A DNA stretch of 64,000 bases from a virus: positions 1 through 64,000 of IMG/VR virus record IMGVR_UViG_3300031413_000005; one strand, 5' to 3'. Below, one piece after another: positions 2,928 to 32,018 of this stretch. The position numbers and the translations under genes were made by a program. Under the pieces are notes generated by a model. It was not told the origin of the DNA, did not search any database, and saw only the letters and a list, made by a program, of their open reading frames with translations. Positions within the stretch are counted from its first letter, which is position 1; each line of letters opens with the position of its first letter.

Positions 2928-3587
2928 CTAAAACTGGCCCCAACCGGGGATGGTTTCTTCCTCCGTGTCACGCTTGGCTCGCGCGAGGTAGAGGGTTCGG
3001 TGATGGGCATAAAGGCCGCACCGCAGATGCTCGATCGCTTCCCAACCGGGGAGGGTCGGCTTGATCGTCCACTGAACCACATTGCCCGAGCCGTTCTTCT
3101 TGGTGCTGACACCTTCGACGAGGCTCTTGTCGAGCATCTCCTTCAGCCACGGGCCGATCCTCGTATAGGTCTGCTGCGCTGGGCGGTTGTCGGCGTAGGG
3201 CCAGGTCTCCAGCGTGTTGAGCGCTGATGGCGAGAGGTCGTCGATGACGAAGTGGAGAGGATTGCGAGGAAGCTCTACCATGCCGTCCTGCTTAGATAAC
3301 GCGGCCGGGGTGAGCGCGTCCATGGTCTCCTGCGTTACGACTTGCCCCGTGCCGGTATAGAGCGCCCAGCCCTTGTTCCTGGCGATGACGATGGGGATGC
3401 CGCGGTAGTGCGCGAGCCTGCCATCACCGGTGTAAGTGATGGCAGGCGCCATGCCCGCCTTCTCGTAAGCCTTCAGCGCGATGAACACCTCGTCGCTGAA
3501 GTCCCATGACCATTTGTTGGCGTCGGGTCGCTCGATGTGGTGCGAGGCGTATGTGCGCGCCCTTGCCAGCTGCGTGTCGAGGTTCAT
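2928..3587 (-). CDS. hypothetical protein with C-terminal PGWGQF motif
   Basis: 219 aa, ends EEETIPGWGQF. Confidence 0.7.
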   Translation of the reverse strand: MNLDTQLARARTYASHHIERPDANKWSWDFSDEVFIALKAYEKAGMAPAITYTGDGRLAHYRGIPIVIARNKGWALYTGTGQVVTQETMDALTPAALSKQDGMVELPRNPLHFVIDDLSPSALNTLETWPYADNRPAQQTYTRIGPWLKEMLDKSLVEGVSTKKNGSGNVVQWTIKPTLPGWEAIEHLRCGLYAHHRTLYLARAKRDTEEETIPGWGQF

Positions 3588-3790
3588 TCCGGTGCCAGCT
3601 CATACTGCACGTAGCCCAGGAGCAGCGTGCGGCGATCCTCGCGCGACAGCGGCGTCCAGTGCTCGATATGGCTGAAATACATCGACGCCCAACCGCCGTC
3701 GGTGACGCCCATCATCTGCTGAATGGGAATCACCGCCTCGTCGATCGTGTCGGCTTCGAGCGCAGTCTCGATCAGCGCCTTCATGCTCAT
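3584..3790 (-). CDS. hypothetical protein
   Basis: 68 aa, coupled to next gene. Confidence 0.6.
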   Translation of the reverse strand: MSMKALIETALEADTIDEAVIPIQQMMGVTDGGWASMYFSHIEHWTPLSREDRRTLLLGYVQYELAPE

Positions 3791-3805
3791 TCCGTTGAAC
3801 CCTTC

Positions 3806-3835
3806 GGTGACGCGAACACCTCTGTTCGCGTCACC
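3806..3835. other. perfect 13-bp stem hairpin
   Basis: GGTGACGCGAACA-cctc-TGTTCGCGTCACC, intergenic. Confidence 0.6.
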
Positions 3836-3858
3836 TGTTTGCGTCAGCGCCTGTAGGG

Positions 3859-4164
3859 CTACGAGTGGCTTGTGAGACCGAACGCGACGCCGCGCTCGAG
3901 TGCCGACGTCAGGTCATCATCCTGGATCACGGCGACGGTCACGCCTTCGCGATGAAGATGCACCCCGTCTTCCAAGATGATGATTCCGTCGAGCTGACTA
4001 AGCCAGGCACGCACGACCGCCCTCCCCGTCTCCATGTCCTTGCCCTGATAGTCCACGGTGACCGTGGGGGCTGGAGCATGCCGGGCCGATCGTCGTGCCT
4101 CGACGCGCCGATCGCGCATCTTCGTAATGGCCGTGGCAGGTTTGCGCTTATCGGTCAGTCGCAT
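3859..4164 (-). CDS. hypothetical protein
   Basis: GGAG SD before ATG 4164. Confidence 0.55.
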   Translation of the reverse strand: MRLTDKRKPATAITKMRDRRVEARRSARHAPAPTVTVDYQGKDMETGRAVVRAWLSQLDGIIILEDGVHLHREGVTVAVIQDDDLTSALERGVAFGLTSHS

Positions 4165-4499
4165 GGGTCGGTAGTCTCCAGATATGTGCCGACCATGGCT
4201 GACGTGATCGCCTCGCCTGATCCTCGGTAAATGAACCCGTTGCGCTCCTCGAACGCCGCGAGAAAGTCGTCCCATGCCCACGGGTCGGTAGCGCATGCGG
4301 GGCTATTGGGGTGGCGCTTCACGGCAGCATCGCGAAGGGAGACATACGCATCCCGCCTCTCGTCCTTTTGCTGGTCCGTGGACGTGTAGATGCCGATCCC
4401 CAGTTTGCGCATTGCCTTGGTGAGCATTGGCAAACTGGTTGATGGGTCTTTGGCAAGATCGAGAGCTGCCGCCAAATCGCTAGGGCCTGGATCTTTCAT
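4155..4499 (-). CDS. hypothetical protein
   Basis: GGAG SD before ATG 4499. Confidence 0.5.
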   Translation of the reverse strand: MKDPGPSDLAAALDLAKDPSTSLPMLTKAMRKLGIGIYTSTDQQKDERRDAYVSLRDAAVKRHPNSPACATDPWAWDDFLAAFEERNGFIYRGSGEAITSAMVGTYLETTDPCD

Positions 4500-4573
4500 T
4501 ACATCTCCATGTGCGGCGATACGCTCCGCATCGTATGTGTGTGGTCTGATATGCACCGCGAGGTGCGTTATGG

Positions 4574-4702
4574 CTAGTATGCTGCCGTTATCTTTGCATC
4601 TGGTGCGAGGAATTTCCCCGCAGCCTGCGATGCCTTCATGCACCCGATGATAAAGAGCACGGCGAGCAGCGCGATCATCGCGCGAATGGGCTTGTCCTGC
4701 AT
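4574..4702 (-). CDS. small membrane/lipoprotein-like protein
   Basis: GGAG SD; hydrophobic stretch ending FIIGC. Confidence 0.35.
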   Translation of the reverse strand: MQDKPIRAMIALLAVLFIIGCMKASQAAGKFLAPDAKITAAY

Positions 4703-5002
4703 GTCTCCACTTCTCGTTGACGGTCTACAAACAATACGCGTCAACACGGTGGAAGGTGCGCGGGCTTTAACCGGCATTTGCGCTCGTAGGGACGCATGTT
4801 TTAAGCGTCTCTAAACGACACTAAGCGGTCGCGCTGGTCGAGTTGCTGAATCTGCGAAATCGCGTCAGGTGATGCTTGCATGTCACATTCCATGCGTTGT
4901 GCATGCGTGTGGTTGCGGTTGCACATTGACGCTCAAAACGTGCAACTATCTGTAAACTATCCGCAACCGCCACGGCTCGGCATGGCGTATAAAATGCTGC
5001 AA

Positions 5003-5221
5003 TTACAGTGGGTTATGCGGTTCTTCTGGCTCGCTATCGAGATCGTCGCCAATGAGCGCTGCGCGGGCCACTTCATACTCGTCCAGGCCCTTCTGGATCC
5101 TCGCCTCGATCTTCGCCCAAAGCATCGGATTGGCGTCGATCGCGGGCTTCTCGGTGCGCACCGCGTTGATGAGGTTGTCGGCCGCGTCGATGAAACGCTG
5201 AATGTCTGTCATGTCAGCCAT
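5003..5221 (-). CDS. hypothetical protein
   Basis: GGAGG SD. Confidence 0.6.
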   Translation of the reverse strand: MADMTDIQRFIDAADNLINAVRTEKPAIDANPMLWAKIEARIQKGLDEYEVARAALIGDDLDSEPEEPHNPL

Positions 5222-5229
5222 GATGCCTC

Positions 5230-5493
5230 CTAGAATTGACCCCAGCCCGCGGGCTCATGCTGCTTCTGCACCACCATTGGCACCGCGTCATCCCAATCCC
5301 GCAGGGTGGGGAAGCCGTCATTGCGAATGACCATGCCGTCGACCCTGGGATCGCCATAGGGCGAGCCTTCGACGAAACCTGCCGGCAGCGTCTCGGGCCA
5401 TACCTTGACCCCACCTGGCGCATAGCTGATGTCGACGCGCGCGATCTGCGTGCCGTCTGCGAACTCGATGGGCTCGAACCAGTCGATCGTCAT
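5230..5493 (-). CDS. hypothetical protein with C-terminal GWGQF motif
   Basis: 87 aa, ends HEPAGWGQF. Confidence 0.7.
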   Translation of the reverse strand: MTIDWFEPIEFADGTQIARVDISYAPGGVKVWPETLPAGFVEGSPYGDPRVDGMVIRNDGFPTLRDWDDAVPMVVQKQHEPAGWGQF

Positions 5494-5639
5494 GCGGCTG
5501 TGACCATCTGCTTCACGCCGGCAAGCGTGTTGGCACGTACCTTGCGGCCGTCATCGTGTCGTGCGATCCACGGGGCGTCAGGGCCACCGGTGCGGCTCAG
5601 GTAGAAGCCCTTATACATGCGCGGCGCCGGGATCTTCAC
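5490..5639 (-). CDS. small hypothetical protein
   Basis: GTGA-coupled; ends AA. Confidence 0.5.
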   Translation of the reverse strand: MKIPAPRMYKGFYLSRTGGPDAPWIARHDDGRKVRANTLAGVKQMVTAA

Positions 5640-5932
5640 GGCATCACCTTTCGCACGCCGTTGCAGTAGCCGCCCATCATGCGCGGCGTCCCGTTGACCG
5701 GTGGGATGATCTCGCGCTCGATGATCTTCTGCTCGCCTTCCCAGACCTTGAACACCGCGGCGATGCGATAGCGCGGGCACCCCTCGAAATCGACGAGACC
5801 GATCACGGTCCCTTCGAGGTAGCAGTCGTCGCTGAACTCGAAATCGTAGGAGCGAACCAGGTCGCCAACCTCGATCTTCTCGGCGAGATCTGGATCCTGG
5901 AGGCGGAAGTTCGGGACGGGCTTAGCGATCAT
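5636..5932 (-). CDS. hypothetical protein (SH3-like beta barrel?)
   Basis: IEVGDLVRSYDF...YLEGTVIG pattern; GAGG SD. Confidence 0.55.
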   Translation of the reverse strand: MIAKPVPNFRLQDPDLAEKIEVGDLVRSYDFEFSDDCYLEGTVIGLVDFEGCPRYRIAAVFKVWEGEQKIIEREIIPPVNGTPRMMGGYCNGVRKVMP

Positions 5933-6182
5933 GACCTCGTGCCTCCAGTTCGTCCGTGCATGCTGCGATCGCGGCGCGGTTGTCTTCGGCGTCCTGCCCC
6001 ATCGCTGCATCCCAGGTCGCGATGTTGGCGGCATCGGGGAGCGTGGCGCGAATAGCGGTGTCGCTATCGAGGCGGAACTGCGCGATCTGGCGCAGGTTGC
6101 GCAGCGTGCCGCTATCGAGGTTTGCCACACCGAACTCGGCGAGGTGACGCTTGGGGTCGATACTCAAGCTACCAGCCTCCAC
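5922..6182 (-). CDS. hypothetical protein
   Basis: Fills gap in co-oriented gene string. Confidence 0.5.
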   Translation of the reverse strand: MEAGSLSIDPKRHLAEFGVANLDSGTLRNLRQIAQFRLDSDTAIRATLPDAANIATWDAAMGQDAEDNRAAIAACTDELEARGHDR

Positions 6183-6592
6183 TCACCACCTTCGGGCATC
6201 GCGAAGTCGCGGCGCTCGTGGTCGAGAAACAGGTCATAGATGTCACCTACGCCGACCCAGCCTCGTGCAATGTTCCAGCACTGGTTCAAGTCTTCGGTCT
6301 TATAAACGGCATACAAGGTCTCCGTCTTGCCTCCGAAGTCCACGATTTCGAGGAAGCCGGTGCGGTCCAGCTCGTCAGCGTCGTCGCCGGTCAACATGAA
6401 GCCCTCGGCGTCATCGCTCGGATCGTAGAGCACGAAGGCACCGGGAATCTGCGCCGCGCGCTTGACGATCAGTTCGTTCTGCTCAGCATTCGCGACCGTT
6501 GCGTCTTCGCCATAAGGCTCGATGCCTGGGCCTGCCATGAACTCGCTGCGAGCAACGATGCGGAAGCCATAGGTTTCGACCTTGTAGCTCAT
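6164..6592 (-). CDS. hypothetical protein
   Basis: ATGA overlap, 142 aa. Confidence 0.65.
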   Translation of the reverse strand: MSYKVETYGFRIVARSEFMAGPGIEPYGEDATVANAEQNELIVKRAAQIPGAFVLYDPSDDAEGFMLTGDDADELDRTGFLEIVDFGGKTETLYAVYKTEDLNQCWNIARGWVGVGDIYDLFLDHERRDFAMPEGGEWRLVA

Positions 6593-6999
6593 GCCGTCTC
6601 TGCCAGCGCATCGGCGTAGGCCTCGGCCGTCTTGAGTGCGGCCTCGAGGCTCGTCGAATAGTCCGAGATCAGGTCGTGACCTTCGTTGCCGTAGACCAGA
6701 TGCACCGCGCCGACCCGCTTCTGCGTCGTCGCGTTATAGGCGATGACGTAGTCCGAGTCCGTCGAGAACAGCGCGCCCATGATCGCGTTGACAGACGTGG
6801 AATGCTTGAGCACCGTCTCCTCGCCGTCGTTGACGCCGATCGTGAAGCCAGCATCGAGCAGCGCGTCCACAGTCTTGCGCGCGACCTTACCTTCCATCTC
6901 GATGCGCTTGATGAGGCTCTTGGTCGACGCGTCCTGCGGATCGTAGTGGTCGCCGCCCTTGATGCGCTCGATCGTCTGAGTGAATGCCGTCTTGTCCAT
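6589..6999 (-). CDS. hypothetical phage protein
   Basis: AAAGG SD; VNDGEE...LVYGNEG.D.ISDY motif. Confidence 0.7.
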   Translation of the reverse strand: MDKTAFTQTIERIKGGDHYDPQDASTKSLIKRIEMEGKVARKTVDALLDAGFTIGVNDGEETVLKHSTSVNAIMGALFSTDSDYVIAYNATTQKRVGAVHLVYGNEGHDLISDYSTSLEAALKTAEAYADALAETA

Positions 7000-7073
7000 C
7001 GTGAAACCTTTCTGTCACCGCACCGCTGCGGTGATTCTCTTTTGAACCTGTGCCTGCTGGGATGCGGGTGGCT

Positions 7074-7256
7074 TCAGAGCGCAGCGTCGAGGTCCGCGCG
7101 AATGCCGTCGATCTCGGGCTCCTCCTCGAACACCTTGTCCGTGCGATCGGTGAGCCAGTTGCCCAGCTCGGTGACCGCGGTCGCGATCGCGAGGCGCAGG
7201 CGCGCGTTCTCGGCGACCAGCTCCTTGCGGGAGGCATGCTCATGAAGCACACCCAT
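7074..7256 (-). CDS. hypothetical protein
   Basis: TGATG-coupled. Confidence 0.5.
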   Translation of the reverse strand: MGVLHEHASRKELVAENARLRLAIATAVTELGNWLTDRTDKVFEEEPEIDGIRADLDAAL

Positions 7257-7684
7257 CAGCCCTTCTCCCCGTTGCGCTCGTTCGTCAGGAGGATCGCTTC
7301 GTCAGCGCACCGCGCCCAAGGATCGTAGGGCAGCATGCTGCGGTTCATACCGTCGCGCTGATCCTGCGGCATGACCTTCACCAGCGCGGCGTACCGCTCA
7401 ATGGCGGTGAGCACGAACGCCTGCATCAGCGCGCCCTGGCGGCTGAACTCCATCATCCGCGTGACGAACTCGACGTTGGTCTCGGGCAGCTCAGGGTGCG
7501 GGTCGAGGCTGTCGCCCGGCACGAGGATCTCGCGATTGTCGGCCATCGACGTGACGACATACATATCCTCGTCGGCCCGACGCTCGTGTGCCCGCAAGAT
7601 GCGAACCTGCTGGCGTGGCATGTCGATCGTGCCGCCATAGGGGCGCTCGAACGTCCCGCCTTCAATCTCACTCGTCTTGCGCAT
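7256..7684 (-). CDS. hypothetical protein
   Basis: AAAGGA SD; TNVEFVTRMMEFS..GALMQAFV motif. Confidence 0.65.
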   Translation of the reverse strand: MRKTSEIEGGTFERPYGGTIDMPRQQVRILRAHERRADEDMYVVTSMADNREILVPGDSLDPHPELPETNVEFVTRMMEFSRQGALMQAFVLTAIERYAALVKVMPQDQRDGMNRSMLPYDPWARCADEAILLTNERNGEKG

Positions 7685-7765
7685 TCTCGGTCCTTTCGAT
7701 CAGCGCACCGCTGCGCTGCATCGTCTTTATGCTCGCACCGCCTGCGGGATGCGGGTGGGCAGTCG

Positions 7766-8257
7766 TCAGAATTGACCCCAACCGGGCAAAGCCTCGTCGT
7801 CCGCCTGGCGCTGTGCTTCGGCTTCCTCGCGCTGGCGCTTGGCTGCGGCGCGCTCCTTGCGTTCTTCGAGGTCGGCCTCGCGCTGGGCGGCTGCGTAAGC
7901 CGCCTGCTGCCCGGCGAGCGGATCGTAATCGATCGAGCCGTTGTCCTCTGAGTCGTCGAGGTCGACGCCAGTGGTCGAGACACCGCGCTTACCGCCCGCG
8001 GCCAATCGCACCGCGTTGTCGTAGCGGAGTTGGAACTCGTCGTAGGTGATGACGGTCACGCCAAGGTTGCGCGCTTCCCGAGCCTTCAAGGTGCTCCTGG
8101 TCGAAGCCACGAGAAAGCTGGTGAAGGCGTTGACCTTGGACACGGTCGACCAGCCCATCGATCTTGCCATGTTGGACCACACGTCCCGCGTGCGCAGCTG
8201 TGGCTGCGTCGAGTTGGTGTCCGTGTAGCCCTTGCCGGTGAAACAGACGCTCGTCAT
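7766..8257 (-). CDS. BRCT-domain protein with C-terminal PGWGQF motif
   Basis: VCFTG...V...T..LV...T.K...A..LGV.VITYDEF matches the ligase-type BRCT pattern; coiled linker; ends DDEALPGWGQF. Confidence 0.8.
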   Translation of the reverse strand: MTSVCFTGKGYTDTNSTQPQLRTRDVWSNMARSMGWSTVSKVNAFTSFLVASTRSTLKAREARNLGVTVITYDEFQLRYDNAVRLAAGGKRGVSTTGVDLDDSEDNGSIDYDPLAGQQAAYAAAQREADLEERKERAAAKRQREEAEAQRQADDEALPGWGQF

Positions 8258-8259
8258 CG

Positions 8260-8415
8260 TCAGGCTTCCTTGATCCTCGCGAGCGCCCAGCGCCGCGCAC
8301 GGCCGCGCGTGGACATCGGTGGGGAGATGTCGATGCAGGTGTTGTCAGCGCGCCAGCCGGCACCGTGGAAGGTGCCGTCAGGACAGACCGCGGTGGTGAC
8401 GTAAGGCTGCGGCAT
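8260..8415 (-). CDS. small hypothetical protein
   Basis: TGATG-coupled 51-aa ORF MPQPYVTT (not in ORF track). Confidence 0.4.
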   Translation of the reverse strand: MPQPYVTTAVCPDGTFHGAGWRADNTCIDISPPMSTRGRARRWALARIKEA

Positions 8416-9074
8416 CAGAAGATCGCCCGTGCCGCTGGGTCATCCATGTCGATCGCTTCGACATCATTCGCTGGTGCAAGCGCCTTCACGATCTCCTCGG
8501 GCGAGTTGTCATCGATCAGCGGCACGATGGCGACCGACGGCACCGTCACGGTATCTTCCCAGTTCTCGATACCGTCATTCCAGTCGACCGCGGCGAGGTC
8601 CGACAGCAGGTGCCAGTTCAGCTTGTCGGCATCGTCCACGTTGGTCTTGCAGCCGATCCAGGCCCCGCGCGTGTCGTCGTAGAGGTAGAAGTATTGCTCG
8701 GCCATGCCGGCGCCCATGAAGTCCTCGACCGACGCAAAGCTCTCGGGCGGGATAAAGTCGTCGCCGCGATCGCGGTGGTAGAACAGGCAGTAGGTCGAGC
8801 GCACGTCGTCGTGCTGGCGCTGGTGACACTCCTGCCAGGTCTCACCCGCAAGCTGCTCCATCTTCGAGGCCCAGCTGAAGTCGTGCTTTTCGCCGATGTT
8901 CTCGCGGAGCACCGACTGCATGCCCAGGTCGATCAGCTGCTGGACCTTCGAGCGGTCCTGATAGTGGGTATGCAGCAGCCGGCCATTCCAGCTGAAGTAA
9001 CCGTCGCTCTGGCAGTAGTGCGTGGTGATCGAGCCATCCCGGTGCAGGATGCCGATCTGTGAACGGGTGGACAT
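8415..9074 (-). CDS. hypothetical phage protein
   Basis: AGGAG SD; STRSQIG...YCQSDGY motif; ends DDPAARAIF. Confidence 0.75.
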   Translation of the reverse strand: MSTRSQIGILHRDGSITTHYCQSDGYFSWNGRLLHTHYQDRSKVQQLIDLGMQSVLRENIGEKHDFSWASKMEQLAGETWQECHQRQHDDVRSTYCLFYHRDRGDDFIPPESFASVEDFMGAGMAEQYFYLYDDTRGAWIGCKTNVDDADKLNWHLLSDLAAVDWNDGIENWEDTVTVPSVAIVPLIDDNSPEEIVKALAPANDVEAIDMDDPAARAIF

Positions 9075-9115
9075 GGTCAGGTCTCCTTGCGCGGTGTGCG
9101 CGTGAGTGTTGTCGC

Positions 9116-9541: not shown

Positions 9542-9567
9542 TTTTCTCCTGTTGAGTGTGTTGTCGA

Positions 9568-9999: not shown

Positions 10000-10187
10000 C
10001 GACGTCGTATCCTGTTGGCTTTGCGCGCGGCCTTCGCCTTGGCGCGTCGGTTGAATTTCACGGCCGGCGCGAGGCGTTTGCGCTCGCTCACCGGCTTGTA
10101 GTTGGGGTCAATCCACGGACGATCGAACGCTTGATAGTCGATCCTCGTAAACGGCATCGTCAGCGCAAAAACGATCGCGGGGTTCAT
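9996..10187 (-). CDS. small basic protein
   Basis: ATGA-coupled, Arg/Lys-rich tail. Confidence 0.45.
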   Translation of the reverse strand: MNPAIVFALTMPFTRIDYQAFDRPWIDPNYKPVSERKRLAPAVKFNRRAKAKAARKANRIRRR

Positions 10188-15690: not shown

Positions 15691-15993
15691 TCAAAAGATA
15701 GGGACCAGCTCGTCTTCCGCTACGAAAGCCGGTTCGAGGGCCTTGCGCCGTGCGATGCTCTCGGCCGCGGTCATCATCGTCTTCTGCGTCGCCAGCGTGT
15801 AGCGACAGATGATCCTCGTATCCTCCAGAAACACGAACTTCGCGCCATTCGTCGACCGGCCCGGGTGCCCGCTCATCATCGGCCGCGCCGGATCGAGCTG
15901 CACCTCGTAGGCCAGGCCGTTGCAGTTGAATACGATGTCGCCGATCTTGAACCGTGGATCCAAGCCGACGATTTTGTCGGGGTCGCGAGCCAT
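15691..15993 (-). CDS. hypothetical protein
   Basis: TGATG-coupled; ends EDELVPIF. Confidence 0.6.
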   Translation of the reverse strand: MARDPDKIVGLDPRFKIGDIVFNCNGLAYEVQLDPARPMMSGHPGRSTNGAKFVFLEDTRIICRYTLATQKTMMTAAESIARRKALEPAFVAEDELVPIF

Positions 15994-16658
15994 CAGAACA
16001 TCGCCGGCATGGTGACGTCATCGGGCGTGATCGCCATGCGCGCCGACTTGTCCATCATCGCAGCATACTCGGCCGGGGTCATGAAGATGTCCTGGAGCCG
16101 ACGGCTGATCTGACACACCACGCCGTCCTCGCCAGCGAACCGCATCACGGGGTTCTTGGTCGCGCGGAAACGGCTAGTGCGCATGCGCTCGAAGACGACC
16201 GTGAACTTCTGGCGGTGCTGGCCGTCACCGAACCGCACCGGCTGGGGCAGGTAGACGACGTCGCCACGTTCGAGCTTCTTCGTCTTCGCGACCTTCTTGG
16301 CTGCGAGGTTGTCCCGGCAGCGCAGGCGCCAGTCTGCGGCGTACTTGTCGCTCCCGGTCGGGTCTGCGAGCGGCGTGAGCAGGTCGAGGATCTTCTTCGG
16401 GCACTTGGACTCGCAAGGCCCGGCGCTCTCGTCCATCGACTTCAGGAGGAACTCGCGCTGACCGCCATGCGACCCGATCTTGGTGAGAAAGATCGCCGCG
16501 AACACCTGGCCGCTGCGCTCGGGCGCGAGGTGCTTTACCGCCGCGTACCAGGTGCCACCCACCATGGAGTCCGCGAGCACCTCGTAATTTGCGCCCAGCT
16601 CGTTGCGGCAGAACTCCCGGCGATCTTCCGGGATTCTGCTCATACCAGTCCAGCCCAT
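15993..16658 (-). CDS. DUF6927-like protein
   Basis: MGW...KSMDESAGP...CPKKILDLL...WRLRC pattern. Confidence 0.65.
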   Translation of the reverse strand: MGWTGMSRIPEDRREFCRNELGANYEVLADSMVGGTWYAAVKHLAPERSGQVFAAIFLTKIGSHGGQREFLLKSMDESAGPCESKCPKKILDLLTPLADPTGSDKYAADWRLRCRDNLAAKKVAKTKKLERGDVVYLPQPVRFGDGQHRQKFTVVFERMRTSRFRATKNPVMRFAGEDGVVCQISRRLQDIFMTPAEYAAMMDKSARMAITPDDVTMPAMF

Positions 16659-16747: not shown

Positions 16748-16906
16748 TCAGCGCTTGCGAGGTAACCGCCGCGTCCGCTGAATTGCCGGAGCGAAGACGA
16801 CCAAGGCCCCTGCCCCATCGCACCCGCTGCAACGCCAGTATTCCAGGCCGCGAGCGAACGTGACGATGTTGCCGGCGCCGCGGCATACAGGGCAGATGCC
16901 CGCCAT
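16748..16906 (-). CDS. small CxxCxGxG zinc-finger protein
   Basis: CPVCRGAG...CSGCDGAG. Confidence 0.55.
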   Translation of the reverse strand: MAGICPVCRGAGNIVTFARGLEYWRCSGCDGAGALVVFAPAIQRTRRLPRKR

Positions 16907-17550
16907 CAGAACATGAACGCCAGCGGGTGGTCTTCCAGCTCGCCGAAGACAGCGGTCGAAGCCGTCAGGTTGACCCGGTCCATCTCCTGCTGCGCGCGGA
17001 CGCTGGGGAGCATGCGCTGGCACCACTGCACCGCTTCCTCGCTCTCCCAGGGTTTGCCCACGAACCGCGGTGAATTGAGGCGCGGAAGATCTGGCTTGTC
17101 GAGCCAGGCGAGAGTGAAGGCGTCCTCCCCTCCCCGCTCGAACGTCAGGTCGATCAGGTGCTCACGGAATGAAGCGAACCGGACGAACGGCCGCGCTGCG
17201 CCTTTGGGCAGCAGCTGAAGGGTCTCGGTGTCGCTGGTCGATATGAACGGGAACAGCTGCTCGGCCGTCGGCTTGGTGAACCGAGTGGCGAACTTGTTCA
17301 CCTCCTCGATGTCTTTCCAGTACCGGCACATGCGGTAGCCGGCGCCATCCTTCAGCTTCACCAGCATACAGCCATTGCCGTTGCGGTGCGCGTAGATCAG
17401 CGGCGACTTCGCCCAGTTGCCCTCGATGTCGTAGTGCAGCAGATGCAGCGGCACCGGGGCCGTGCGATCGACCACGTCCGCGTAAGGCACGTCGACCGCA
17501 CGAACCGCGGCTTTGATTGCGTCGTAGTCGACGCCGTCGAAACTGTTCAC
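16906..17550 (-). CDS. hypothetical protein
   Basis: GGAG SD; ends EDHPLAFMF. Confidence 0.65.
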   Translation of the reverse strand: MNSFDGVDYDAIKAAVRAVDVPYADVVDRTAPVPLHLLHYDIEGNWAKSPLIYAHRNGNGCMLVKLKDGAGYRMCRYWKDIEEVNKFATRFTKPTAEQLFPFISTSDTETLQLLPKGAARPFVRFASFREHLIDLTFERGGEDAFTLAWLDKPDLPRLNSPRFVGKPWESEEAVQWCQRMLPSVRAQQEMDRVNLTASTAVFGELEDHPLAFMF

Positions 17551-20100: not shown

Positions 20101-20721
20101 CTATGCAGCCTGCACTGCGGGGAGACCGAGCGCCGCGTTCAGATCCTGCACCGGGATCGCCGGCACGTTGGACTTCGGGGCAGTCTTGATGAACTCCCTC
20201 GCGATCGGCATCACATCAGGCCACACCGCTTCGAGCTGCCCGTCCGTGCGCGTCTGATTCAACACGGCCATGATCTCGCAGCGGCGCGTGACGATCTCCT
20301 CTTTCAGGGCCTCGCGCTCGGTTGCCCAGTCCATGCAGCGCTGACCAAGGTTGTCGTCAGCCTCCAGCGAAAGCATGTTCCCATTGCGATGTTTGTCGAG
20401 GCAGGTGAATTGCGCGCACTGCTCACGCGGCACGAGGCGATCGACGTCGCACATGGTAAGCACGCTTTCGTCGCGCCGGGTACCAATGCTGAGCTGCATG
20501 CCGCCAATCGCGATCTTGAGAACGCGCCGATCGGTGAACTCCTCGTACTTGTCTTGGAGAAGCCGGATCGCTGCACGCTCTGCCCGCGAGTAGCACCGCT
20601 CGTAGATCTCTTTCGCAAGATCGTTGCCGATCACCGCGAGCTCCACGCACCGGTCGGTAAAGGCGTGCTTGATGACCGCGCCTGTAATGCGGCTTCGGGT
20701 CTCGTTCGTGATGATCGTCAT
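20101..20721 (-). CDS. Nmad5-like (nucleotide modification-associated) protein
   Basis: Helical; C-terminal T..QL..VWPD and LP...LN..LGL pattern. Confidence 0.55.
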   Translation of the reverse strand: MTIITNETRSRITGAVIKHAFTDRCVELAVIGNDLAKEIYERCYSRAERAAIRLLQDKYEEFTDRRVLKIAIGGMQLSIGTRRDESVLTMCDVDRLVPREQCAQFTCLDKHRNGNMLSLEADDNLGQRCMDWATEREALKEEIVTRRCEIMAVLNQTRTDGQLEAVWPDVMPIAREFIKTAPKSNVPAIPVQDLNAALGLPAVQAA

Positions 20722-20799
20722 GTCGTCTAGTCCGTTGATCGATTTATGAGTTAGCGGATGGCGTAGAGATTTGGTGCCGGCGCCGGGAGCCAGGAGGCG

Positions 20800-21549
20800 T
20801 TAGGCAGCGAGCTCGCGCAGCTTGGCGCCGAGCGCGGTGTTCGAGAGCTTGAACTTGCGACCGTCCTGGGAGACCAGACCGAACATGCGGAACAGCGATG
20901 TCATCTGCTGGCTCTGCGCACGAGCGGTGCCCATACCGAGACCGGCGTCGGTGTAGACCTTCACCAAGTCCGTGCTGGTGATCTCGCCGACCTTCACGAG
21001 CTCGGTGACTGCCAGCGACGTGAAGCGCGACAGCTTCTTACCGGTGTTGACCGCGGCCATTGCGTTATCAGCCTTCTCGCGTACCTTCTTGGCAGCGTCG
21101 TCCAGCCGACTCGAGAGAGCAGCGCGGTCGATCTCGCTCAGCAGAGCGGCGAAGGCGACCGGATCGGTCGCTGGGGCAGGGGAGGGGGTAGCTACCGGGG
21201 CATGGAGGGGGTCTTCTGCCCCGGTAGCAGCACCGACGGGTTGAGGATCAACCGCCGACGCATCTGGGAAACTGGTGGGAGCCTTGCGCTTGCGAGCGGG
21301 CTTCGTGATAACCTGGGGAGCAGCCGAAGGTTCCGGCGCGGTCGACCCGGCGTTGTTGATTTCTGCAAGGATCGCATCGACGTCGATCGTGACGGCGTCG
21401 AGCGGAGCCTCCATCGGCAAATCGATCTGCGGATTTGTCGACACGATGATCTGCGGATTTGTCGACGAGCCATTCGCGATCGCGATGATGGCGTCGATGT
21501 CGTCCAGGTTGAGCTGCTCGGTCGCTGCGGTGTTCGTCTGCTGGTTCAT
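20800..21549 (-). CDS. hypothetical protein, C-terminal winged-helix-like
   Basis: GAGGAG SD; GTARAQSQQM..LF..FG motif. Confidence 0.7.
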   Translation of the reverse strand: MNQQTNTAATEQLNLDDIDAIIAIANGSSTNPQIIVSTNPQIDLPMEAPLDAVTIDVDAILAEINNAGSTAPEPSAAPQVITKPARKRKAPTSFPDASAVDPQPVGAATGAEDPLHAPVATPSPAPATDPVAFAALLSEIDRAALSSRLDDAAKKVREKADNAMAAVNTGKKLSRFTSLAVTELVKVGEITSTDLVKVYTDAGLGMGTARAQSQQMTSLFRMFGLVSQDGRKFKLSNTALGAKLRELAA

Positions 21550-23905: not shown

Positions 23906-23911
23906 AGGGTG

Positions 23912-26001: not shown

Positions 26002-26081
26002 TTTCGGCCTTTCAATTCGTTACAGACCACCCCGACGCGCTCGCTTCAATATGTGTGCAAGCGGTGCGGTGCGATGTGTGT

Positions 26082-26110
26082 TGTCTACCCTGCACCTCTA
26101 CGTCTCGCAA
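26082..26110 (-). promoter_or_regulatory. thyX promoter with two operator copies (26074-26095, 26116-26136)
   Basis: TTGCGA-17-TAGACA. Confidence 0.55.
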
Positions 26111-26135
26111 GCGAAATGTATGTGGTCGACTATGC

Positions 26136-26164
26136 AAAAAAAGGCGGGGAATCACCCCCGCCTT
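26136..26164 (-). terminator. rho-independent terminator after nrdB
   Basis: AAGGCGGGG-loop-CCCCGCCTT followed by T tract. Confidence 0.85.
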
Positions 26165-26169
26165 AAATA

Positions 26170-26185
26170 GTTAACAAATAGTTAA
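26170..26185 (-). promoter_or_regulatory. CtrA-type box
   Basis: TTAA-CTATTTG-TTAAC. Confidence 0.55.
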
Positions 26186-26195
26186 TTTGGTTTCG

Positions 26196-27149
26196 TTAAT
26201 CGTCCCAGTCGCCCTTCGCAGCCGCCTTAGAATATTCGGTGGCCTTCTGTTCGAAGAAGTTGGCGTGCTCCTGACCGAACGCCATCACGTAGACCCACGG
26301 CAGGGGATCTTCGGTGACGTCAGCGTAGATGTCCCAGTAGCCGAGCTCGCGCATGCGCTGGTTCGCGATCCACCGAATGTACCGCTTGAGCTCCGCGGCG
26401 GTCATGCCGGGAACGTCGCCAGCGGCGAACACGAGGTCGATGAACTTGTCCTCGTGGTGGACAGCCTCGCGTGCGATCTCCTCGATGCGCACCTTCAGCT
26501 TGGCGCGGTCGATCTCGGGATGCTCGCGCAGCCAAGTGTGGAACACCTTCATCATGCCCTGACAGTGGAGCGTCTCGTCACGCACCGACCACGACACGAT
26601 CTGCCCCATGCCCTTCATCAGGTTCTGGCGGGGGAGGTTCATGAGGAAGGCGAACGAGCCGAACAGCTTCAGCCCCTCGCCGAAGCCCGACACCGCCGCG
26701 AGTGTCTCTGCGACCTTGAAGGCGTCGGTGGGCTCGAAGGATCGGAACCAGTCGGCCGCGTCGACCATCTCCTGGTATTCCTTGAAGGCGTGGGCCTGCT
26801 CGGAAGGGATGCCCAGCGTGTCGAGCAAGTGCCGGTACGCGTGGACGTGAATGGTCTCCATGTTGGAGAACGCCGACAGCATCATCTTGACCGACACCGG
26901 CTTGAAGACGGCGCTGTACCGCTGGTGGTAGCAGTCCTGCACCTCGACGTCGGCCTGGGTGAAGAACAGGAAGATCATGTCGATCGCGGAGCGCATGCGC
27001 GGGTTGAGCGTCTTATACTGCTTCACGTCGTCGCCCATCGGGACTTCGTCAGCGAGCCAGTGCATTTGCTGGGCGCGCTTCCAGAAATCCATCGCCCAGG
27101 GGTACGGGTCTTCTGCGCCGAAGATCATCTCTGCGTTGTCGAGTGCCAT
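26196..27149 (-). CDS. nrdB: ribonucleotide reductase class I beta subunit
   Basis: FFTQAD, ETIH..AY, EG..LF.SF, RDETLH, NFFEQKATEY; start MALDN at 27149. Confidence 0.95.
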   Translation of the reverse strand: MALDNAEMIFGAEDPYPWAMDFWKRAQQMHWLADEVPMGDDVKQYKTLNPRMRSAIDMIFLFFTQADVEVQDCYHQRYSAVFKPVSVKMMLSAFSNMETIHVHAYRHLLDTLGIPSEQAHAFKEYQEMVDAADWFRSFEPTDAFKVAETLAAVSGFGEGLKLFGSFAFLMNLPRQNLMKGMGQIVSWSVRDETLHCQGMMKVFHTWLREHPEIDRAKLKVRIEEIAREAVHHEDKFIDLVFAAGDVPGMTAAELKRYIRWIANQRMRELGYWDIYADVTEDPLPWVYVMAFGQEHANFFEQKATEYSKAAAKGDWDD

Positions 27150-27163
27150 GTGTGTGTTACTTT

Positions 27164-27793
27164 CTATGCACCGGGCGCGCGAAGCGGCCGTGCATCTCGT
27201 GGGTGAATGTATCGGATGGTGGGGAAGGCGTCGGTGGGCTTCGACCAGTCCCAGAAATACCACGCGAAGCTGAAGCGCGGGGACTTGTCCCCCTTCTTCT
27301 TGGCGAACCACCGCGGCCTCTCGGTCACGATCAGCTTCATGCAGTAGGCCGGGTGCCCTTCGAACAGATCCGGCCGGTCCTTTGATGACGTGTCCCAGTC
27401 GGTGCGCAGGAACATCGCGACCTTACCGCCGACCGCCTTGGTGTGCTCCAGGGCCGCGCGAACGAAAGGCTCGGCCATGTCGCCATAGGGCGGGTTGGTG
27501 ATGATCGCGGTAACGCCACGCGGCGCCGTGGTTGCAGCAAGGAAGTCCACCGGGGCGGTGCCAAAGCCGCGGTTGATGAGGTCGGTGCTGTAGACCCGCG
27601 CGCCCAGCTCACGCATGCGCTTCGAGAGATGTCCCTCACCACACGCCGGCTCCCAGACAACCATGTCGTGCATCGCGATGAAGTGCGCGAGGCAGTCGAA
27701 GTAGCGGGGAGGGGTCGGATAAAAATCATTCTCGATGCGCTCGTATCCCGAAGGACCCAGCATAGCCGGGTCCTTCATCGTACTGTCGCTCAC
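27164..27793 (-). CDS. amino-type DNA methyltransferase
   Basis: DFYPTP, VWEPACGEG, IITNPPY. Confidence 0.85.
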   Translation of the reverse strand: MSDSTMKDPAMLGPSGYERIENDFYPTPPRYFDCLAHFIAMHDMVVWEPACGEGHLSKRMRELGARVYSTDLINRGFGTAPVDFLAATTAPRGVTAIITNPPYGDMAEPFVRAALEHTKAVGGKVAMFLRTDWDTSSKDRPDLFEGHPAYCMKLIVTERPRWFAKKKGDKSPRFSFAWYFWDWSKPTDAFPTIRYIHPRDARPLRAPGA

Positions 27794-29793
27794 TGGCAGG
27801 CCAGGCATTCGGGCTCTGCATCGTAGAGCGGGCCGGATGCGAAGGTCGGCTCGGGCATGTCACCGGGCGCATGGCCCATCGTCGGTGCCTGGGCGATCGA
27901 CTTCGAGCGCAGGTAGTAAAGGCTCTTGAGCCCCATCTCCCACGCAAGGACGTGCAGGGCTTCGAGATCCTTCTTGTGGACGTCGGCCGGGATGAACAGG
28001 TTCGTCGACTGGGCCTGGCAGACGTAAGCCGTCCGGTCCTTCGAGTGACGGAGCAACCATCGCTGATCCATCTCGAACGCGGTCTTGTAGCAAGCCTTCT
28101 CCATGCTCGTCAGGAACGGCAGGGTCTGGACCGAACCACCGTGCGCGACGATCGTCTGGATGATGCCCTGGATCCAGTCTTCCTTACCCATGTTCTGTGC
28201 GCCGCTGGTGATGCCAGTCTCTCGCAGGAGGGCGAACAGGACAGACGTGCCGTTGTCGGCCAGCTCGTCGTAGCGCTTCTCCAGCAACGCGCGGAGGTGA
28301 CGGTTGATGCGCGTCGTCGTGCCGGTCAGCGTCTTCTGGTTGAACACGTTGCCAACGTCAGGCTCGCCACAGGCCGAGACCTCGCCGCAGATGACCGAGA
28401 TCGACGCGGTGGGAGCGATTGCGAACTTGTGCGTGAAGCGATCCTCCATGCCGCATTCGAGCGCGTCGAGGCACGGACCACGCTCGCGGCCCAGCTCGAT
28501 GCTGATGACGTCCGCGGTCTCGCGCAGCCACTTCCAGGTGCGCACGTTGATGCCCGCAGCCTGCTCGCTCTCGAATGGGATGCCGAGCATCTGGAGCATG
28601 CTGGCAAAGCCCATCATGCCGACACCAACCGAGCGCTCGCGACGTGCGCTGTAGACGGCGCGCTCGAAGCCTTTGACGCCGTCGGCGATGTCGATGAAGT
28701 TTTCCATGACGTTGTCGACGAACCGGAAGACGTCGCGCAGGAAGTCCTCGTCACCGAACCACTCGTGGCCCTTCTCCATGTTGAGCGACGACAGGCAGCA
28801 GACGGCGGTGCGCTCGTTGCCCAGGTGGTCGGGGCCGGTGGTCTCGACGATCTCGCTGCACAGGTTCGAGGTGCTGACCATCAGGCCGAGCTTCTTGTAG
28901 GTCTCGGGACGGCCGCGCTCGACTGCGTCCGAGAAGACGATGTAGGGCTCGCCCTCCTCAAGGCGCTTGATGAGCAGCTTGCGCCACAAAGTCTTGGCGT
29001 CGACCGTCTCACGGACAGAGCCGTCCTTCGGGCTCAGCAGCGCCCAGTCTTCACCGTTCTTGCGCGCTTCCATGAACGCATCGCTGACCATCAGGCCGTG
29101 ATGCAGGTTCGGCGCGCGGCGCATGTGGTCGCCCTTCTTGTCGCGGAGCTCGATGAACTCCTCGATCTCGGGGTGACGGTCGTCGAGATATGCAGCGGCC
29201 GAACCGCGACGCAGCGAGCCCTGGCTGATTGCGAGGGTCTGTGCGCCCATCCAGTGCAGGAAGGGGATGATGCCGCTGGTCTCGCCGAGCGGTTCGCCGG
29301 TTGCTTCGTCGGTGCCAATCGTCTCGCCGACAGCTCGCACAGGCGACCACGACGTACCGATGCCACCACCGCGGCAGGCCAGCCAGATGTTCTCGTTCAC
29401 GGTCTCCGCGATCGAATCCATGTTGTCCTGGACGGTGTTCAGGAAGCAGCTGATCGGCATGCCGCGCTTGGTGCCGCTGTTCGACAGCACGGGCGTCGCC
29501 GGCATGAACCACAGGTTGGAGATGGCGTCGTAGATGCGCTGCGCGTGGCCGTTGTCGAGGCCGTGAACGATCTCGTCCGAGTTCGAGCACGCGACGCGAG
29601 CCAACAGCTGCTGAATGCTCTCGCCTGGGAGCAGGTAGCGGTCGCGCAGGGTTTCCTGACCGAACGGGGTGATCTTGTCGTCGCGCGCGTCGTCGATCTG
29701 GATCGTGACGGTCCGACTGCGACGATCGCAGAAGTACGTGTGCGGTCGCGTTGTCGCGGCCGGGGATGGCTGTGCCATCTCGGTCATGGGCAT
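27790..29793 (-). CDS. nrdA: ribonucleotide reductase class I alpha subunit (no ATP cone)
   Basis: PATPVL, SCF, NLCSE, APTAS, KSLYY, C-terminal CLAC. Confidence 0.95.
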   Translation of the reverse strand: MPMTEMAQPSPAATTRPHTYFCDRRSRTVTIQIDDARDDKITPFGQETLRDRYLLPGESIQQLLARVACSNSDEIVHGLDNGHAQRIYDAISNLWFMPATPVLSNSGTKRGMPISCFLNTVQDNMDSIAETVNENIWLACRGGGIGTSWSPVRAVGETIGTDEATGEPLGETSGIIPFLHWMGAQTLAISQGSLRRGSAAAYLDDRHPEIEEFIELRDKKGDHMRRAPNLHHGLMVSDAFMEARKNGEDWALLSPKDGSVRETVDAKTLWRKLLIKRLEEGEPYIVFSDAVERGRPETYKKLGLMVSTSNLCSEIVETTGPDHLGNERTAVCCLSSLNMEKGHEWFGDEDFLRDVFRFVDNVMENFIDIADGVKGFERAVYSARRERSVGVGMMGFASMLQMLGIPFESEQAAGINVRTWKWLRETADVISIELGRERGPCLDALECGMEDRFTHKFAIAPTASISVICGEVSACGEPDVGNVFNQKTLTGTTTRINRHLRALLEKRYDELADNGTSVLFALLRETGITSGAQNMGKEDWIQGIIQTIVAHGGSVQTLPFLTSMEKACYKTAFEMDQRWLLRHSKDRTAYVCQAQSTNLFIPADVHKKDLEALHVLAWEMGLKSLYYLRSKSIAQAPTMGHAPGDMPEPTFASGPLYDAEPECLACQ

Positions 29794-29859
29794 TCCTTCT
29801 AGGGGTTGTGGGTCGGGGCAGATCTTACCCCGACCGCATGTGTGTTGTCTACTATGCAG

Positions 29860-30462
29860 CTACGCCAAAGACAACATCATTCCTGCGAGCTGCCGAAATT
29901 GCTCGGACTTGATTGCTGCGTGCGTGACCGCGACCGCGTCGGCCTGGTGCTCGACACCAAGGACGATGTATTCGCCGTTGGGCTGGACGATGCCCCAGTC
30001 GTTGGCTTTCTTGCCGGTCTGCCACTCGATCGGGCTGTCGGCGGTGTTCGCGAGCACCCAACGCACGATGTCTTCCTTGTCCGCGGTCTTCGTGCCGTGG
30101 GTAGCCAACTTGGTCTCGCTAGGCATAACCTCGATGAGGGGGATCTTCAGCGATGCGAGGATGCCGACTGCGATACCGAACGACAGGGCGGCGCGGGCTG
30201 ACTGCGCACCGGAGGGTATCTCGCTGGCGCCGAACCGAATGTCGTGCTTGGCGATGACGTCGTTGATGGTGTTGACGATCGAGCGCGCGCGAAACAGGTC
30301 GTCGCTGTTACGCCGCACTTGCTTGGTCTTTTCAGGGGCAGTTATCACCGTGCCCCATTCGAGCACCTTGACGATGCGACGGTTGACGATGTCGATTTCA
30401 GATACGGCCCAGCCGGTGTGTGTAAGGCTCGGGTCCAGCCCGAGCATAGTGATGGTTTTCAT
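29860..30462 (-). CDS. ruvC: RuvC-like Holliday junction resolvase
   Basis: LGLDPS..TGW, SEIP, P...K, HQADA. Confidence 0.85.
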   Translation of the reverse strand: MKTITMLGLDPSLTHTGWAVSEIDIVNRRIVKVLEWGTVITAPEKTKQVRRNSDDLFRARSIVNTINDVIAKHDIRFGASEIPSGAQSARAALSFGIAVGILASLKIPLIEVMPSETKLATHGTKTADKEDIVRWVLANTADSPIEWQTGKKANDWGIVQPNGEYIVLGVEHQADAVAVTHAAIKSEQFRQLAGMMLSLA

Positions 30463-31088
30463 GCGTGTGTTGTCGAGCATGCACGTTCGACATGACTCGA
30501 CCCTTTCTTTAGGTTGTCCTGCCACCAGAGCGGTTGCAGGTTGGTGTAATGACAGGCTTGCAGGAATTGCTCGCGGTCGGTGAGGTCGAAGCTGGCGAGA
30601 GGCTTGATGTGGTCGATGTGCCAACCGTATAGACCGCGGTTGTCCCAGGTCATGCCGGGCGTGAACAGTGCTTCAAGATATGCCATCAACTCTGGCACCG
30701 AACATCCTAGATCAGCTATCGCTGACCCTACCTTCTGTTGCCCCCTAATAGCATAAGACATGCGGGCTCTTATTGTGTCGCGTAAACGCCGTTGAGGGTC
30801 GTCCCTTCTGGCTCTACGGTCTCGCTCGATTTGAGCGGCTATCAGTTCATCCTTGTTTTTAAGGTAGTAGCTCCTGGCGTAATTGGCTTTCTTTGTTTTA
30901 TCTCGCGATCGGTCCAAAGCTCGACGCCTATCAGGGTTGTCCCTGCGCCATTTAACTGCGGCATCTCTATCTTCACGACGTCGTCGCTCAAGATGTTTGT
31001 TGCGTGATCTGCGCCCCTTTTCACGACGCTTTTCTATCCTCGCCTGCTCCTCAATCGGCAGGTGCGAGATGTCGCGCTTCGCTGGCAT
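30459..31088 (-). CDS. HNH (homing) endonuclease
   Basis: WHIDHIKPL...HYTNLQPLW..DN; Arg-rich N-terminus; lower GC than flanks. Confidence 0.85.
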   Translation of the reverse strand: MPAKRDISHLPIEEQARIEKRREKGRRSRNKHLERRRREDRDAAVKWRRDNPDRRRALDRSRDKTKKANYARSYYLKNKDELIAAQIERDRRARRDDPQRRLRDTIRARMSYAIRGQQKVGSAIADLGCSVPELMAYLEALFTPGMTWDNRGLYGWHIDHIKPLASFDLTDREQFLQACHYTNLQPLWWQDNLKKGSSHVERACSTTHA

Positions 31089-31223
31089 CCGGGGTTTTCC
31101 GTGTGTTATTCGCCGGTCGTCGGCAGGGTTGTTGTCGGCCCATGATCGTCGGGGCCATGCAGACGTCCGAGCAGTGACAGCCCGGTGGTGCGTGTGCGGT
31201 TGGCTCGCGCAGCAGGCGCCGCA

Positions 31224-32018
31224 TCAGAACTGCCCGAAGCCCGGCAGAGCTTCCTCGAATGCGTGATGCGCATTCTTGGCACCCTCGGCGAACGCGCGCT
31301 CGAACCCCGTCGTCAGGATCTTGTGCATGCTCGGGTTGGCGTTGATCGTGGCCTTCAGGCGATTGTTCACCTCCTGGACCAGCTTGCCGGATGCCTGGAG
31401 GCGGGCGTCGAAGTCGTCAGCCAGGTCGCCGAACGCGTTGACCACGTCGTCGAACTCCAGCTCGATCCACGCCGGGTTGTCCTTGTCTGCGACGGGCTCT
31501 GCGGTGGGCTTGAAGCAGAACAGAAGCCCGGCCTTCTTGCCCATCGTGATCTTGTCGACGTTGAACTGCGCGCCGGCCTTGATGGAGATCTTGCGGTAGC
31601 CATTCTTCTCGGTGACGAAGCCCTGCACCAGCTGGGGCAGGGTGACCGTGAACGGCCCGTTGATACCGGCTTCACCGAACACGCGGGCAACGGTCAGCAG
31701 GTCTCGCATGAAACTGCTCTGCGACGCCTGCGCGATCTGCGCCTCGGTCGGTGGTGGTGGGGGAGGGGCCTTAGCCATTTCGTCCTTTGCTTTCATCTTG
31801 AGTGCGCACGCCTGACAGTTGAAGGCGTACTTGTCGGAATTGCTGATGCTCGAATTGCAGTTCAGGCAGGTGGTGTAATAGTGGCCTTCGCAACAGCCAT
31901 ACTTTCGAAGGTCTTCGACCAGCCCGGTGCCCTTGCAGAGGAAGCAATCGGGCCGGTCCGCGTCCACGTCCTTGCAGATGCGACACGGCTTGAGGTGGTC
32001 GAAGTCCTCGTGATTCAC
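31224..32018 (-). CDS. Zn-finger protein with C-terminal PGFGQF motif
   Basis: Four CxxC pairs at N-terminus, poly-Pro linker, ends EEALPGFGQF. Confidence 0.7.
   Translation of the reverse strand: MNHEDFDHLKPCRICKDVDADRPDCFLCKGTGLVEDLRKYGCCEGHYYTTCLNCNSSISNSDKYAFNCQACALKMKAKDEMAKAPPPPPPTEAQIAQASQSSFMRDLLTVARVFGEAGINGPFTVTLPQLVQGFVTEKNGYRKISIKAGAQFNVDKITMGKKAGLLFCFKPTAEPVADKDNPAWIELEFDDVVNAFGDLADDFDARLQASGKLVQEVNNRLKATINANPSMHKILTTGFERAFAEGAKNAHHAFEEALPGFGQF

Follow-up and report, generated by a model that had tools for sequence, protein, structure and literature searches.

In phage T7, the acidic C-terminal tails of the gp2.5 single-stranded DNA-binding protein (SSB) and the gp4 helicase-primase, which end in Phe, dock on the gp5 polymerase. 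In phages T4 and RB69, the C-termini of gp43, gp33 and gp55 bind the gp45 clamp, and the bacterial beta-clamp motif is QL[SD]LF or QLxLxL. The tip of bacterial SSB, D-D-D-[IL]-P-F-COOH, is a hub for many DNA-metabolism proteins, and eukaryotic docking motifs include the BRC motif F-x-x-A on RAD51 and the Nbs1 motif N-F-K-x-F-x-K on Mre11. Here we analyzed the first 64 kb (64,000 nucleotides, hereafter the window) of IMG/VR virus record IMGVR_UViG_3300031413_000005, an SSU5-like phage whose record is 109,429 bp in full, and in which four unrelated early proteins end in the same short peptide, G-[WF]-G-Q-F. A literature search found no published description of this tail motif, which is apparently undescribed; the principle of a shared docking tail is already known from T4, T7 and SSB. 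We propose, with a probability of roughly 0.55, that the tail is a C-terminal docking motif read by one common phage-encoded partner per genome.

A six-frame stop-to-stop scan of the window returned exactly four open reading frames (ORFs) with a G[WF]GQF end; all four are minus-strand and are those reported in the initial annotation of this DNA. ORF 1 (2928-3587, 219 aa) has no known family and ends in PGWGQF at 2931-2948, followed by the stop codon at 2928-2930. ORF 2 (5230-5493, 87 aa), also of no known family, carries AGWGQF at 5233-5250; ORF 3 (7766-8257, 163 aa) is BRCT-like and carries PGWGQF at 7769-7786; and ORF 4 (31224-32018, 264 aa), a member of what we call the after-SbcC family, carries PGFGQF at 31227-31244. 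We found no internal GWGQF or GFGQF in any of the six frames of the window and no further G[WF]GQF ending in a scan of the whole genome. The tails (TIPGWGQF, EPAGWGQF, ALPGWGQF and ALPGFGQF, respectively) are encoded by differing codons, as had been noted (GGT TGG GGC CAG TTT TAG, GGC TGG GGT CAA TTC TAG, GGT TGG GGT CAA TTC TGA and GGC TTC GGG CAG TTC TGA). Similarly, blastp of the four proteins against the whole proteome aligned the tails only, in agreement with the claim that the bodies are non-homologous. From the proteome composition, about 5e-5 G[WF]GQF endings are expected among the 143 genes, and we observed 4; the shared tail is confirmed as real and far beyond chance. Searching IMG/VR with the DNA pattern for PGWGQF plus a stop codon yielded nothing but PGWGQFW inside unrelated tail-like proteins and hits in non-coding frames.

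We assigned the window phage to the SSU5-like group by tblastn of its DnaE, which matched Salmonella phage SSU5, Klebsiella and E. coli phage-plasmids, Pseudomonas phage nickie, Stenotrophomonas phages and Rhizobium phage RHEph10 at 34-41% identity; RHEph10 and nickie have gene order in common with the window phage. Carrying the tail pattern over to relatives, as had been suggested, we found that unrelated proteins in each share that genome's own version. RHEph10 has six unrelated carriers ending in [HN]-P-[NM]-[FY]-G-R-F; nickie has at least six, three with G[WFY]G[AL]F[GA] and three with [FI]GGW[AS]; and SSU5 has at least two, SSU5_042 and SSU5_076, with [GT]WATW. Three complete IMG/VR relatives, G002 (48% G+C; W/F-G-[LMI]-F), G003 (61% G+C; W-G-[VILM]-F) and G004 (43% G+C; W-G-[AS]-W-[SA]), have 6-7 tags each, every one of them in a replication or early arm. 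Several unrelated proteins thus end in the same peptide in each genome, four here and 6-7 in RHEph10, nickie, G002, G003 and G004; by blastp the carrier bodies are unrelated save for a few paralogue pairs, and among the carriers of the window phage and the cultured relatives the exceptions are one orthologue pair (RHEph10 gp068 and ORF 4) and one paralogue pair. The group-wide tail is (N/D)-P-x-[WFY]-G-x-[WF]-COOH, and the P-G-[WF]-G-Q-F of the window reads as its local version. The free C-terminus described at first needs one qualification, as some lineages have one small residue after the last aromatic. The tail is private to SSU5-like DnaE/CobST phages and phage-plasmids of roughly 100-120 kb.

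The tail also has a preferred place in these genomes. Across 84 sequences (80 IMG/VR loci obtained by a RecA-alignment scan and four reference stretches), it stands on 72 of 6349 gene-strand ORFs vs 5 of 7470 opposite-strand ORFs. Among 71 tagged ORFs, 47 lie between SbcC and RuvC, 16 between RecA and SbcD, and none upstream of RecA. No tagged ORF was found in the structural module of the window genome, G002, G003 or G004. Pfam and PHROGs gave no annotation for 20 carriers of cultured relatives; elsewhere, a G004 carrier located after the primase has a WGR domain, and four carriers located after RecA in relatives have an ExoX-like_C motif. Where BRCT and WGR modules occur in other proteins, they bind DNA ends and nicks, and by analogy it fits that the carriers would bring DNA-end recognition to an enzyme.

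Like the T7 tails, the tail described here is shared by unrelated replication proteins of one phage, and in this window an acidic run precedes it; the last aromatic of the T7 tails is essential. Unlike T7, which has two carriers, there are 4-7 here, they are mostly accessory proteins rather than core replisome parts, the motif is Pro-x-aromatic-Gly-x-aromatic, and the reader is putative. The acidic run, originally described as part of the tag, is present in this genome and is not general across the group. The tail resembles the T4/RB69 clamp-binding ends in that short hydrophobic or aromatic C-terminal peptides on unrelated proteins would meet one hub; unlike them, it does not fit QL[SD]LF, and the genome has no match to PF00712 or PF02916 that would indicate a phage clamp gene, on which ground we rejected a phage-encoded clamp as the reader. 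With the SSB tip, the tail shares an acidic stretch, Pro and a terminal Phe with free carboxylate. The comparison with SSB made in the initial annotation is apt as a principle, with the topology reversed, since SSB is one carrier with many readers whereas here many carriers would have one reader. Moreover, the gp32-like SSB of the phage (38798-39889) ends in DIDAILASLD, and the tag is on four non-SSB proteins. The aromatic spacing is the same as in the BRC and Nbs1 motifs, the carriers lie beside RecA and Mre11/Rad50 homologues and, as in Nbs1, one carrier joins a BRCT module to a long linker and a motif at the C-terminus; there is no homology to BRC or Nbs1, and any docking on the phage RecA or SbcD is hypothetical.

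Free loss of the tail from orthologues, which had been named as a point that would speak against a tag, was not seen in three homologues of ORF 1 or in five metagenomic homologues of the after-SbcC protein. The three homologues of ORF 1 (66-97% identity) end in IPGWGQF or IPGWAQF. Five metagenomic homologues of ORF 4 (57-75% identity) end in PGFGQF (three), PGAGMF and PGWGAF, so the Pro, both Gly and the last Phe are invariant in these tails. Using jackhmmer, we found that 33 carriers, including ORF 4 and RHEph10 gp068, form the one after-SbcC family, and about 44 of the 47 loci in which the SbcC-RuvC interval is complete have a carrier there. In the window, ORF 4 lies directly downstream of an SbcC-like nuclease (32015-34132, minus strand; Pfam SMC_N and AAA_23), and its start overlaps the SbcC stop by 4 nt.

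The core of ORF 4 is residues 81-264, and its relatives all begin at a Pro-rich stretch, M-A-x-P-P-P-P. The zinc finger assigned to this protein by the initial annotation is instead the Cys-rich residues 1-80, an N-terminal extension peculiar to this genome with a predicted local distance difference test (pLDDT) score of about 40 by AlphaFold2 (AF2). These first 80 residues (31779-32018, minus strand) have about ten Cys in CxxC-like pairs that occur in no homologue, and at the corresponding position the relative G001 has a separate 98-aa ORF; the extension may have arisen by gene fusion or by reading through a small gene upstream. The AF2 model of the after-SbcC protein has pLDDT >90 for residues 85-257. 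Foldseek against the PDB gave nothing at E ≤ 0.001 for this fold, and with VIA-align Z reached 4.0 at best, Rad50/SMC head fragments being one of several unrelated matches that tied; we assign no fold. ESM Atlas gave no informative neighbor of the protein, and a metagenome scan with the family found nothing. An IMG/VR scan with the family found one relative of 80 kb, G001, which is missing its early region.

The BRCT label of ORF 3 is backed by several concordant matches, each of them weak. The protein has a BRCT-like domain (residues ~1-87), a disordered stretch, a single helix of about 40 residues (113-155) and the tail. It matches the PHROG NAD-ligase C-terminus at E 1.3e-4, the BRCT domain of a ligase (PDB 1l7b) weakly at E 0.15, and a tagged G002 protein ending in GWGMF at 33% identity (E 4e-10); this G002 orthologue in turn matches Pfam PTCB-BRCT with E 2.6e-4, a match short of the curated cut-off. 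In the AF2 model the domain reaches pLDDT 47-82, and its top Foldseek rows are BRCT domains at E 0.1-0.5. The window phage and G002 have this carrier in common, and in each the tail follows the wording of its own genome. The homologue in Rhodobacter phage RcZahn ends after the domain, without linker and tail, and we found no tail family in RcZahn.

The wording of the tail changes in concert within genomes. At position -2, the residue before the last aromatic, within-genome identity was 0.36 vs a shuffled mean of 0.12, and none of 10000 shuffles reached this value. Corroborating this result, within-genome identity was 0.77 vs 0.50 for the last aromatic and 0.83 vs 0.60 for the optional extra residue (0 of 10000 shuffles for each), and 0.65 vs 0.46 for position -4 (3 of 10000). 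On the RecA tree, position -2 became hydrophobic on at least seven occasions, and close sisters differ there: the window phage has Q, G001 has M at 87% RecA identity, locus L034 has S, and G002 has L, M or I. Uniform wording within a genome and different wording between genomes points to one co-evolving reader. Since the carriers belong to unrelated families and the codons differ, one reader per genome is the simplest reading.

We therefore favor, on the strength of these sequence patterns, a model in which the tail would be a linear motif of two aromatics three positions apart around a Gly, usually after a Pro, attached, often by way of a linker that is helical or disordered, to accessory proteins of the replication/recombination arm that are not related to one another. 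The carriers would include the after-SbcC protein, BRCT-like and WGR modules, and small proteins without an assigned fold. All carriers of one genome would dock by the tail onto one phage-encoded replication or recombination partner whose pocket co-evolves with the tail, and the phage would thereby recruit interchangeable DNA-end and repair modules to the same enzyme. We infer both that the tail binds a partner and that this partner is phage-encoded. The common hub proposed initially is upheld as far as tag-like behavior goes, that is, retention in orthologues and wording proper to each genome, and not in naming CobS/CobT as a candidate hub.

Several results weigh against this model. Neither the co-occurrence survey nor the column association test identified a reader of the tail. 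Wording is mixed in locus L090 (WGAF, WGGF, FGSF and FGSW), the window phage itself mixes W and F at -4, and the motif is short; hence, any pocket would be tolerant, which weakens the argument from co-evolution. Similarly, some genomes mix W-G-x-F and F-G-x-W, so any pocket would have to accept either aromatic order. Concerted wording could in principle also come from a fast-evolving host target. We compared the class at -2 (hydrophobic vs other) with the alignment columns of eight neighboring core proteins (DnaE, UvsY-like, SSB, exonuclease, RecA, SbcD, SbcC and RuvC) at about 42 loci and found no outlier; the best p was 1e-4 among about 3300 columns, with all proteins alike. Finally, G008 (loci L138-L143), an in-group provirus that is 95% complete, has no tail family, and its after-SbcC gene (20220-21086) ends in NPHFGILKL. 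Hence, only a degenerate copy is kept there, and the tail system can decay. G008 also has no ligase by tblastn.

As for the partner, co-occurrence provides a weak lead. The tag-less complete genome G007 (114.5 kb) has homologues of RecA, SbcC, SbcD, DnaB and ligase; its DnaE is without the UDG-like (uracil-DNA glycosylase-like) part, and we detected no homologue of DnaG, DnaQ or the RuvC-like protein. Found only with the tail, in this small sample with one informative outgroup, are the UDG-like domain of DnaE, DnaQ, this DnaG family, the RuvC-like protein and the reductase. Homologues at 26-40% identity need not share a pocket, and SSB and the UvsY-like protein were too divergent to score. The weak candidates that emerge from co-occurrence are then the UDG-like domain of DnaE, DnaQ, DnaG and the RuvC-like resolvase.

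The DnaE polymerase (40519-43923, minus strand; Pfam DNA_pol3_alpha and UDG) has its UDG-like domain at the C-terminus (40519-41104; residues ~940-1134). This part is present in every tag-bearing genome tested and conserved across the group. It has D-x-P and G-F-N-P, which we take to stand in place of the family-4 UDG motifs GEAPG and HPS; because of this replacement, the domain may be catalytically inactive and serve another role. The UDG-like domain or the DnaQ polymerase core is a possible, if doubtful, reader of the tail, and about as much can be said for the RuvC-like protein, DnaG, SSB and the UvsY-like protein taken together. The RecA-like recombinase is an unlikely candidate and SbcCD slightly more so. 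Complex prediction for the C-terminal 70 residues of the after-SbcC protein with RecA (residues 38-340), SbcD and the RuvC-like protein, using one alignment per chain, gave ipSAE 0.00 with no controls run, which has no bearing on binding either way. The end of the DnaQ-like protein, RRIGQFQIAGLA, looked tag-like and was dropped because the DnaQ tails of relatives do not follow the wording of their own genome.

More specifically, though with low probability, free-standing sensors of DNA ends and nicks (BRCT, WGR, the after-SbcC protein and others) may plug into one replisome part through a lineage-private code. The dock would most likely be the probably inactive UDG-like domain of DnaE or its DnaQ partner, with a pocket co-evolving with the tail. 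If true, this plug-in system would be a prokaryotic-virus counterpart of eukaryotic PIP-box/BRCT scaffolding, and it would explain the UDG-like domain on DnaE.

A reader supplied by the host is rather unlikely. It could be a protease or unfoldase, the tail then serving as a degron that sets when early proteins are removed, or a factor of replication or repair recruited or blocked by the phage. Consistent with this idea, the tail is exposed, C-terminal and hydrophobic, as in degrons, and wording differs by host (WATW in enterobacterial elements, WGAFG/FGGWA in Pseudomonas and FGRF in Rhizobium). However, close relatives in one clade differ in wording (Q, M, S and L/M/I, as above), whereas distant phages share it, as with G002 and G003, which both have WG-hydrophobic-F at 48% and 61% G+C. 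Hence, a phage-borne reader fits better than a conserved host machine. The C-terminal degrons described so far end in small non-polar residues, and degron tags of the LAA type differ in sequence from the tail.

The host beta clamp deserves separate mention. We rejected the tail as a beta-clamp motif, since Gln is absent from its position 1 and its position 4 is not hydrophobic; across the group, Q, R, S, T, A, G and hydrophobic residues all occur just before the last aromatic, and no starting Gln is conserved. DnaE has its own canonical clamp-binding pentapeptide, QIALM (41140-41154, minus strand; residues 924-928, after the helix-hairpin-helix region). Its relatives have QLELL, QKELL and QAELM, and where E. 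coli has its internal motif, the five aligned phage DnaEs all retain Q-x-[AE]-L-[LM]. With QIALM in DnaE and no phage clamp gene found, use of the host clamp is implied. Because DnaE keeps this motif, the tail is not the clamp motif; hence, the host clamp appears to be addressed by a motif other than the tail.

It is very unlikely that the tail has no protein reader and that its aromatic pair instead stacks on single-stranded DNA or DNA ends, or caps the preceding helix. The carriers are DNA-metabolism proteins, aromatics stack on bases, and the after-SbcC tail has pLDDT of about 83 without a partner in the AF2 model. Yet such a generic role leaves unexplained why position -2 and the extra residue are uniform within a genome and differ between genomes.

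A candidate hub put forward in the initial annotation was CobS/CobT, which we now regard as highly improbable. The tail would target the carriers to the MoxR-type AAA+ protein CobS (44575-45840, minus strand; Pfam AAA_5) and a split CobT (von Willebrand factor A (vWA) half 45939-47255 and N-terminal half 47252-48586, minus strand; Pfam CobT_C and CobT), where the metal ion-dependent adhesion site (MIDAS) of the vWA domain or the AAA+ ring would grip the C-terminus. The capture of C-terminal or acidic peptides by vWA domains is an established idea, and both CobS and CobT occur in every tag-bearing genome tested, inside the replication module. However, ICP2, CRP-810 and the complete G007, all outside the group, have CobS/CobT homologues and no tail family, and no tagged gene adjoins cobS or cobT in the genomes surveyed. 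Hence, with three CobS/CobT phages lacking the tail, this hub is not supported.

Equally remote is a role in packaging, in which the tail would load its carriers into the capsid for injection with the DNA, for although encapsulin cargo peptides are short C-terminal tags on unrelated proteins that bind an HK97-fold shell, and BRCT-type DNA-end binders could protect injected DNA, the tagged genes all lie in early, replication or recombination arms near SbcC, RuvC, RecA and primase, with none in or beside the head genes, and the capsid protein ranks with the best-conserved proteins of the group (52-55% identity) whereas tail wording changes fast.

The genes around the carriers were identified from Pfam and PHROGs; the window has a G+C content of about 62%, with nearly every gene on the minus strand. 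Upstream of the SbcC-like gene lies an SbcD-like nuclease (34184-35233, minus strand; 349 aa), which has no Pfam match, was named via tblastn to phage metallophosphoesterase/SbcD-like exonuclease genes and has at least 150 homologues. The SbcC/SbcD synteny is kept in RHEph10, nickie, SSU5 and about 47 IMG/VR loci. The RecA/UvsX-like recombinase is at 36629-37771 (minus strand; Pfam RecA, E 1.7e-32). The RuvC-like resolvase (29860-30462, minus strand; Pfam RuvC) starts at 30462 (M55 of the long ORF) rather than 30624, a position inferred from relatives. In most relatives the after-SbcC carrier abuts the RuvC-like gene, and here a 209-aa HNH-like ORF (30459-31088, minus strand; signature GWHIDHIKPL...N) lies between the two and overlaps the RuvC-like start by 4 nt. 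Relatives lack a gene at this site, which suggests the insertion of a homing-type endonuclease.

Between DnaE and SSB, a 170-aa helical-hairpin protein (39962-40474, minus strand) has among its nearest ESM Atlas feature clusters one with Pfam UvsY in 17% of members, and it may be a recombination mediator. The window phage also encodes a RepA-type initiator (50099-51181) and, by Pfam or PHROGs, a 5'-3' exonuclease, a class I ribonucleotide reductase, ThyX, DnaG and DnaB. Outside the window, in the other arm, is an ATP-dependent DNA ligase (G000 97022-98209, plus strand; PF01068, E 3.6e-14); in relatives, the ligase is immediately downstream of the after-primase tagged genes.

Some other endings recall the tail. 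A small ORF (58984-59290, minus strand) downstream of a 1431-aa tail-fibre-like gene ends in IMYGTF, which is probably a chance match to a loose motif because it has no Pro-Gly context and lies in the late region. A 123-aa protein adjoining the endolysin (56857-57228, minus strand) ends in SIPGFGKKAD, a tag-like PGFG plus four further residues. Four minus-strand proteins have endings that combine an acidic stretch, hydrophobic residues and a C-terminal Phe: 8415-9074 (DDPAARAIF, kept in G001 as DEDDLAARAIF), 15691-15993 (EDELVPIF, similar to the bacterial SSB tip), 15993-16658 (DDVTMPAMF) and 16906-17550 (EDHPLAFMF). They may represent a second class of tail, or else mimic the host SSB.

Phage-plasmids of the SSU5-like kind are widespread, and some carry resistance genes in Enterobacteriaceae (PMC9600943, PMC7969092). 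Their accessory genes are for the most part uncharacterized, and the tail provides a handle on 2-7 such proteins per genome at once. Judging from sequence, the tail most likely plugs DNA-repair helper proteins into one partner, and it predicts that the carriers take part in a single process, one located at the replication/recombination machinery. Should the reader turn out to be the UDG-like domain or a different core enzyme, phage DNA metabolism would gain a new case of modular factor recruitment, and the tail would amount to a lineage-specific interaction code that may be usable to type or perturb these elements.

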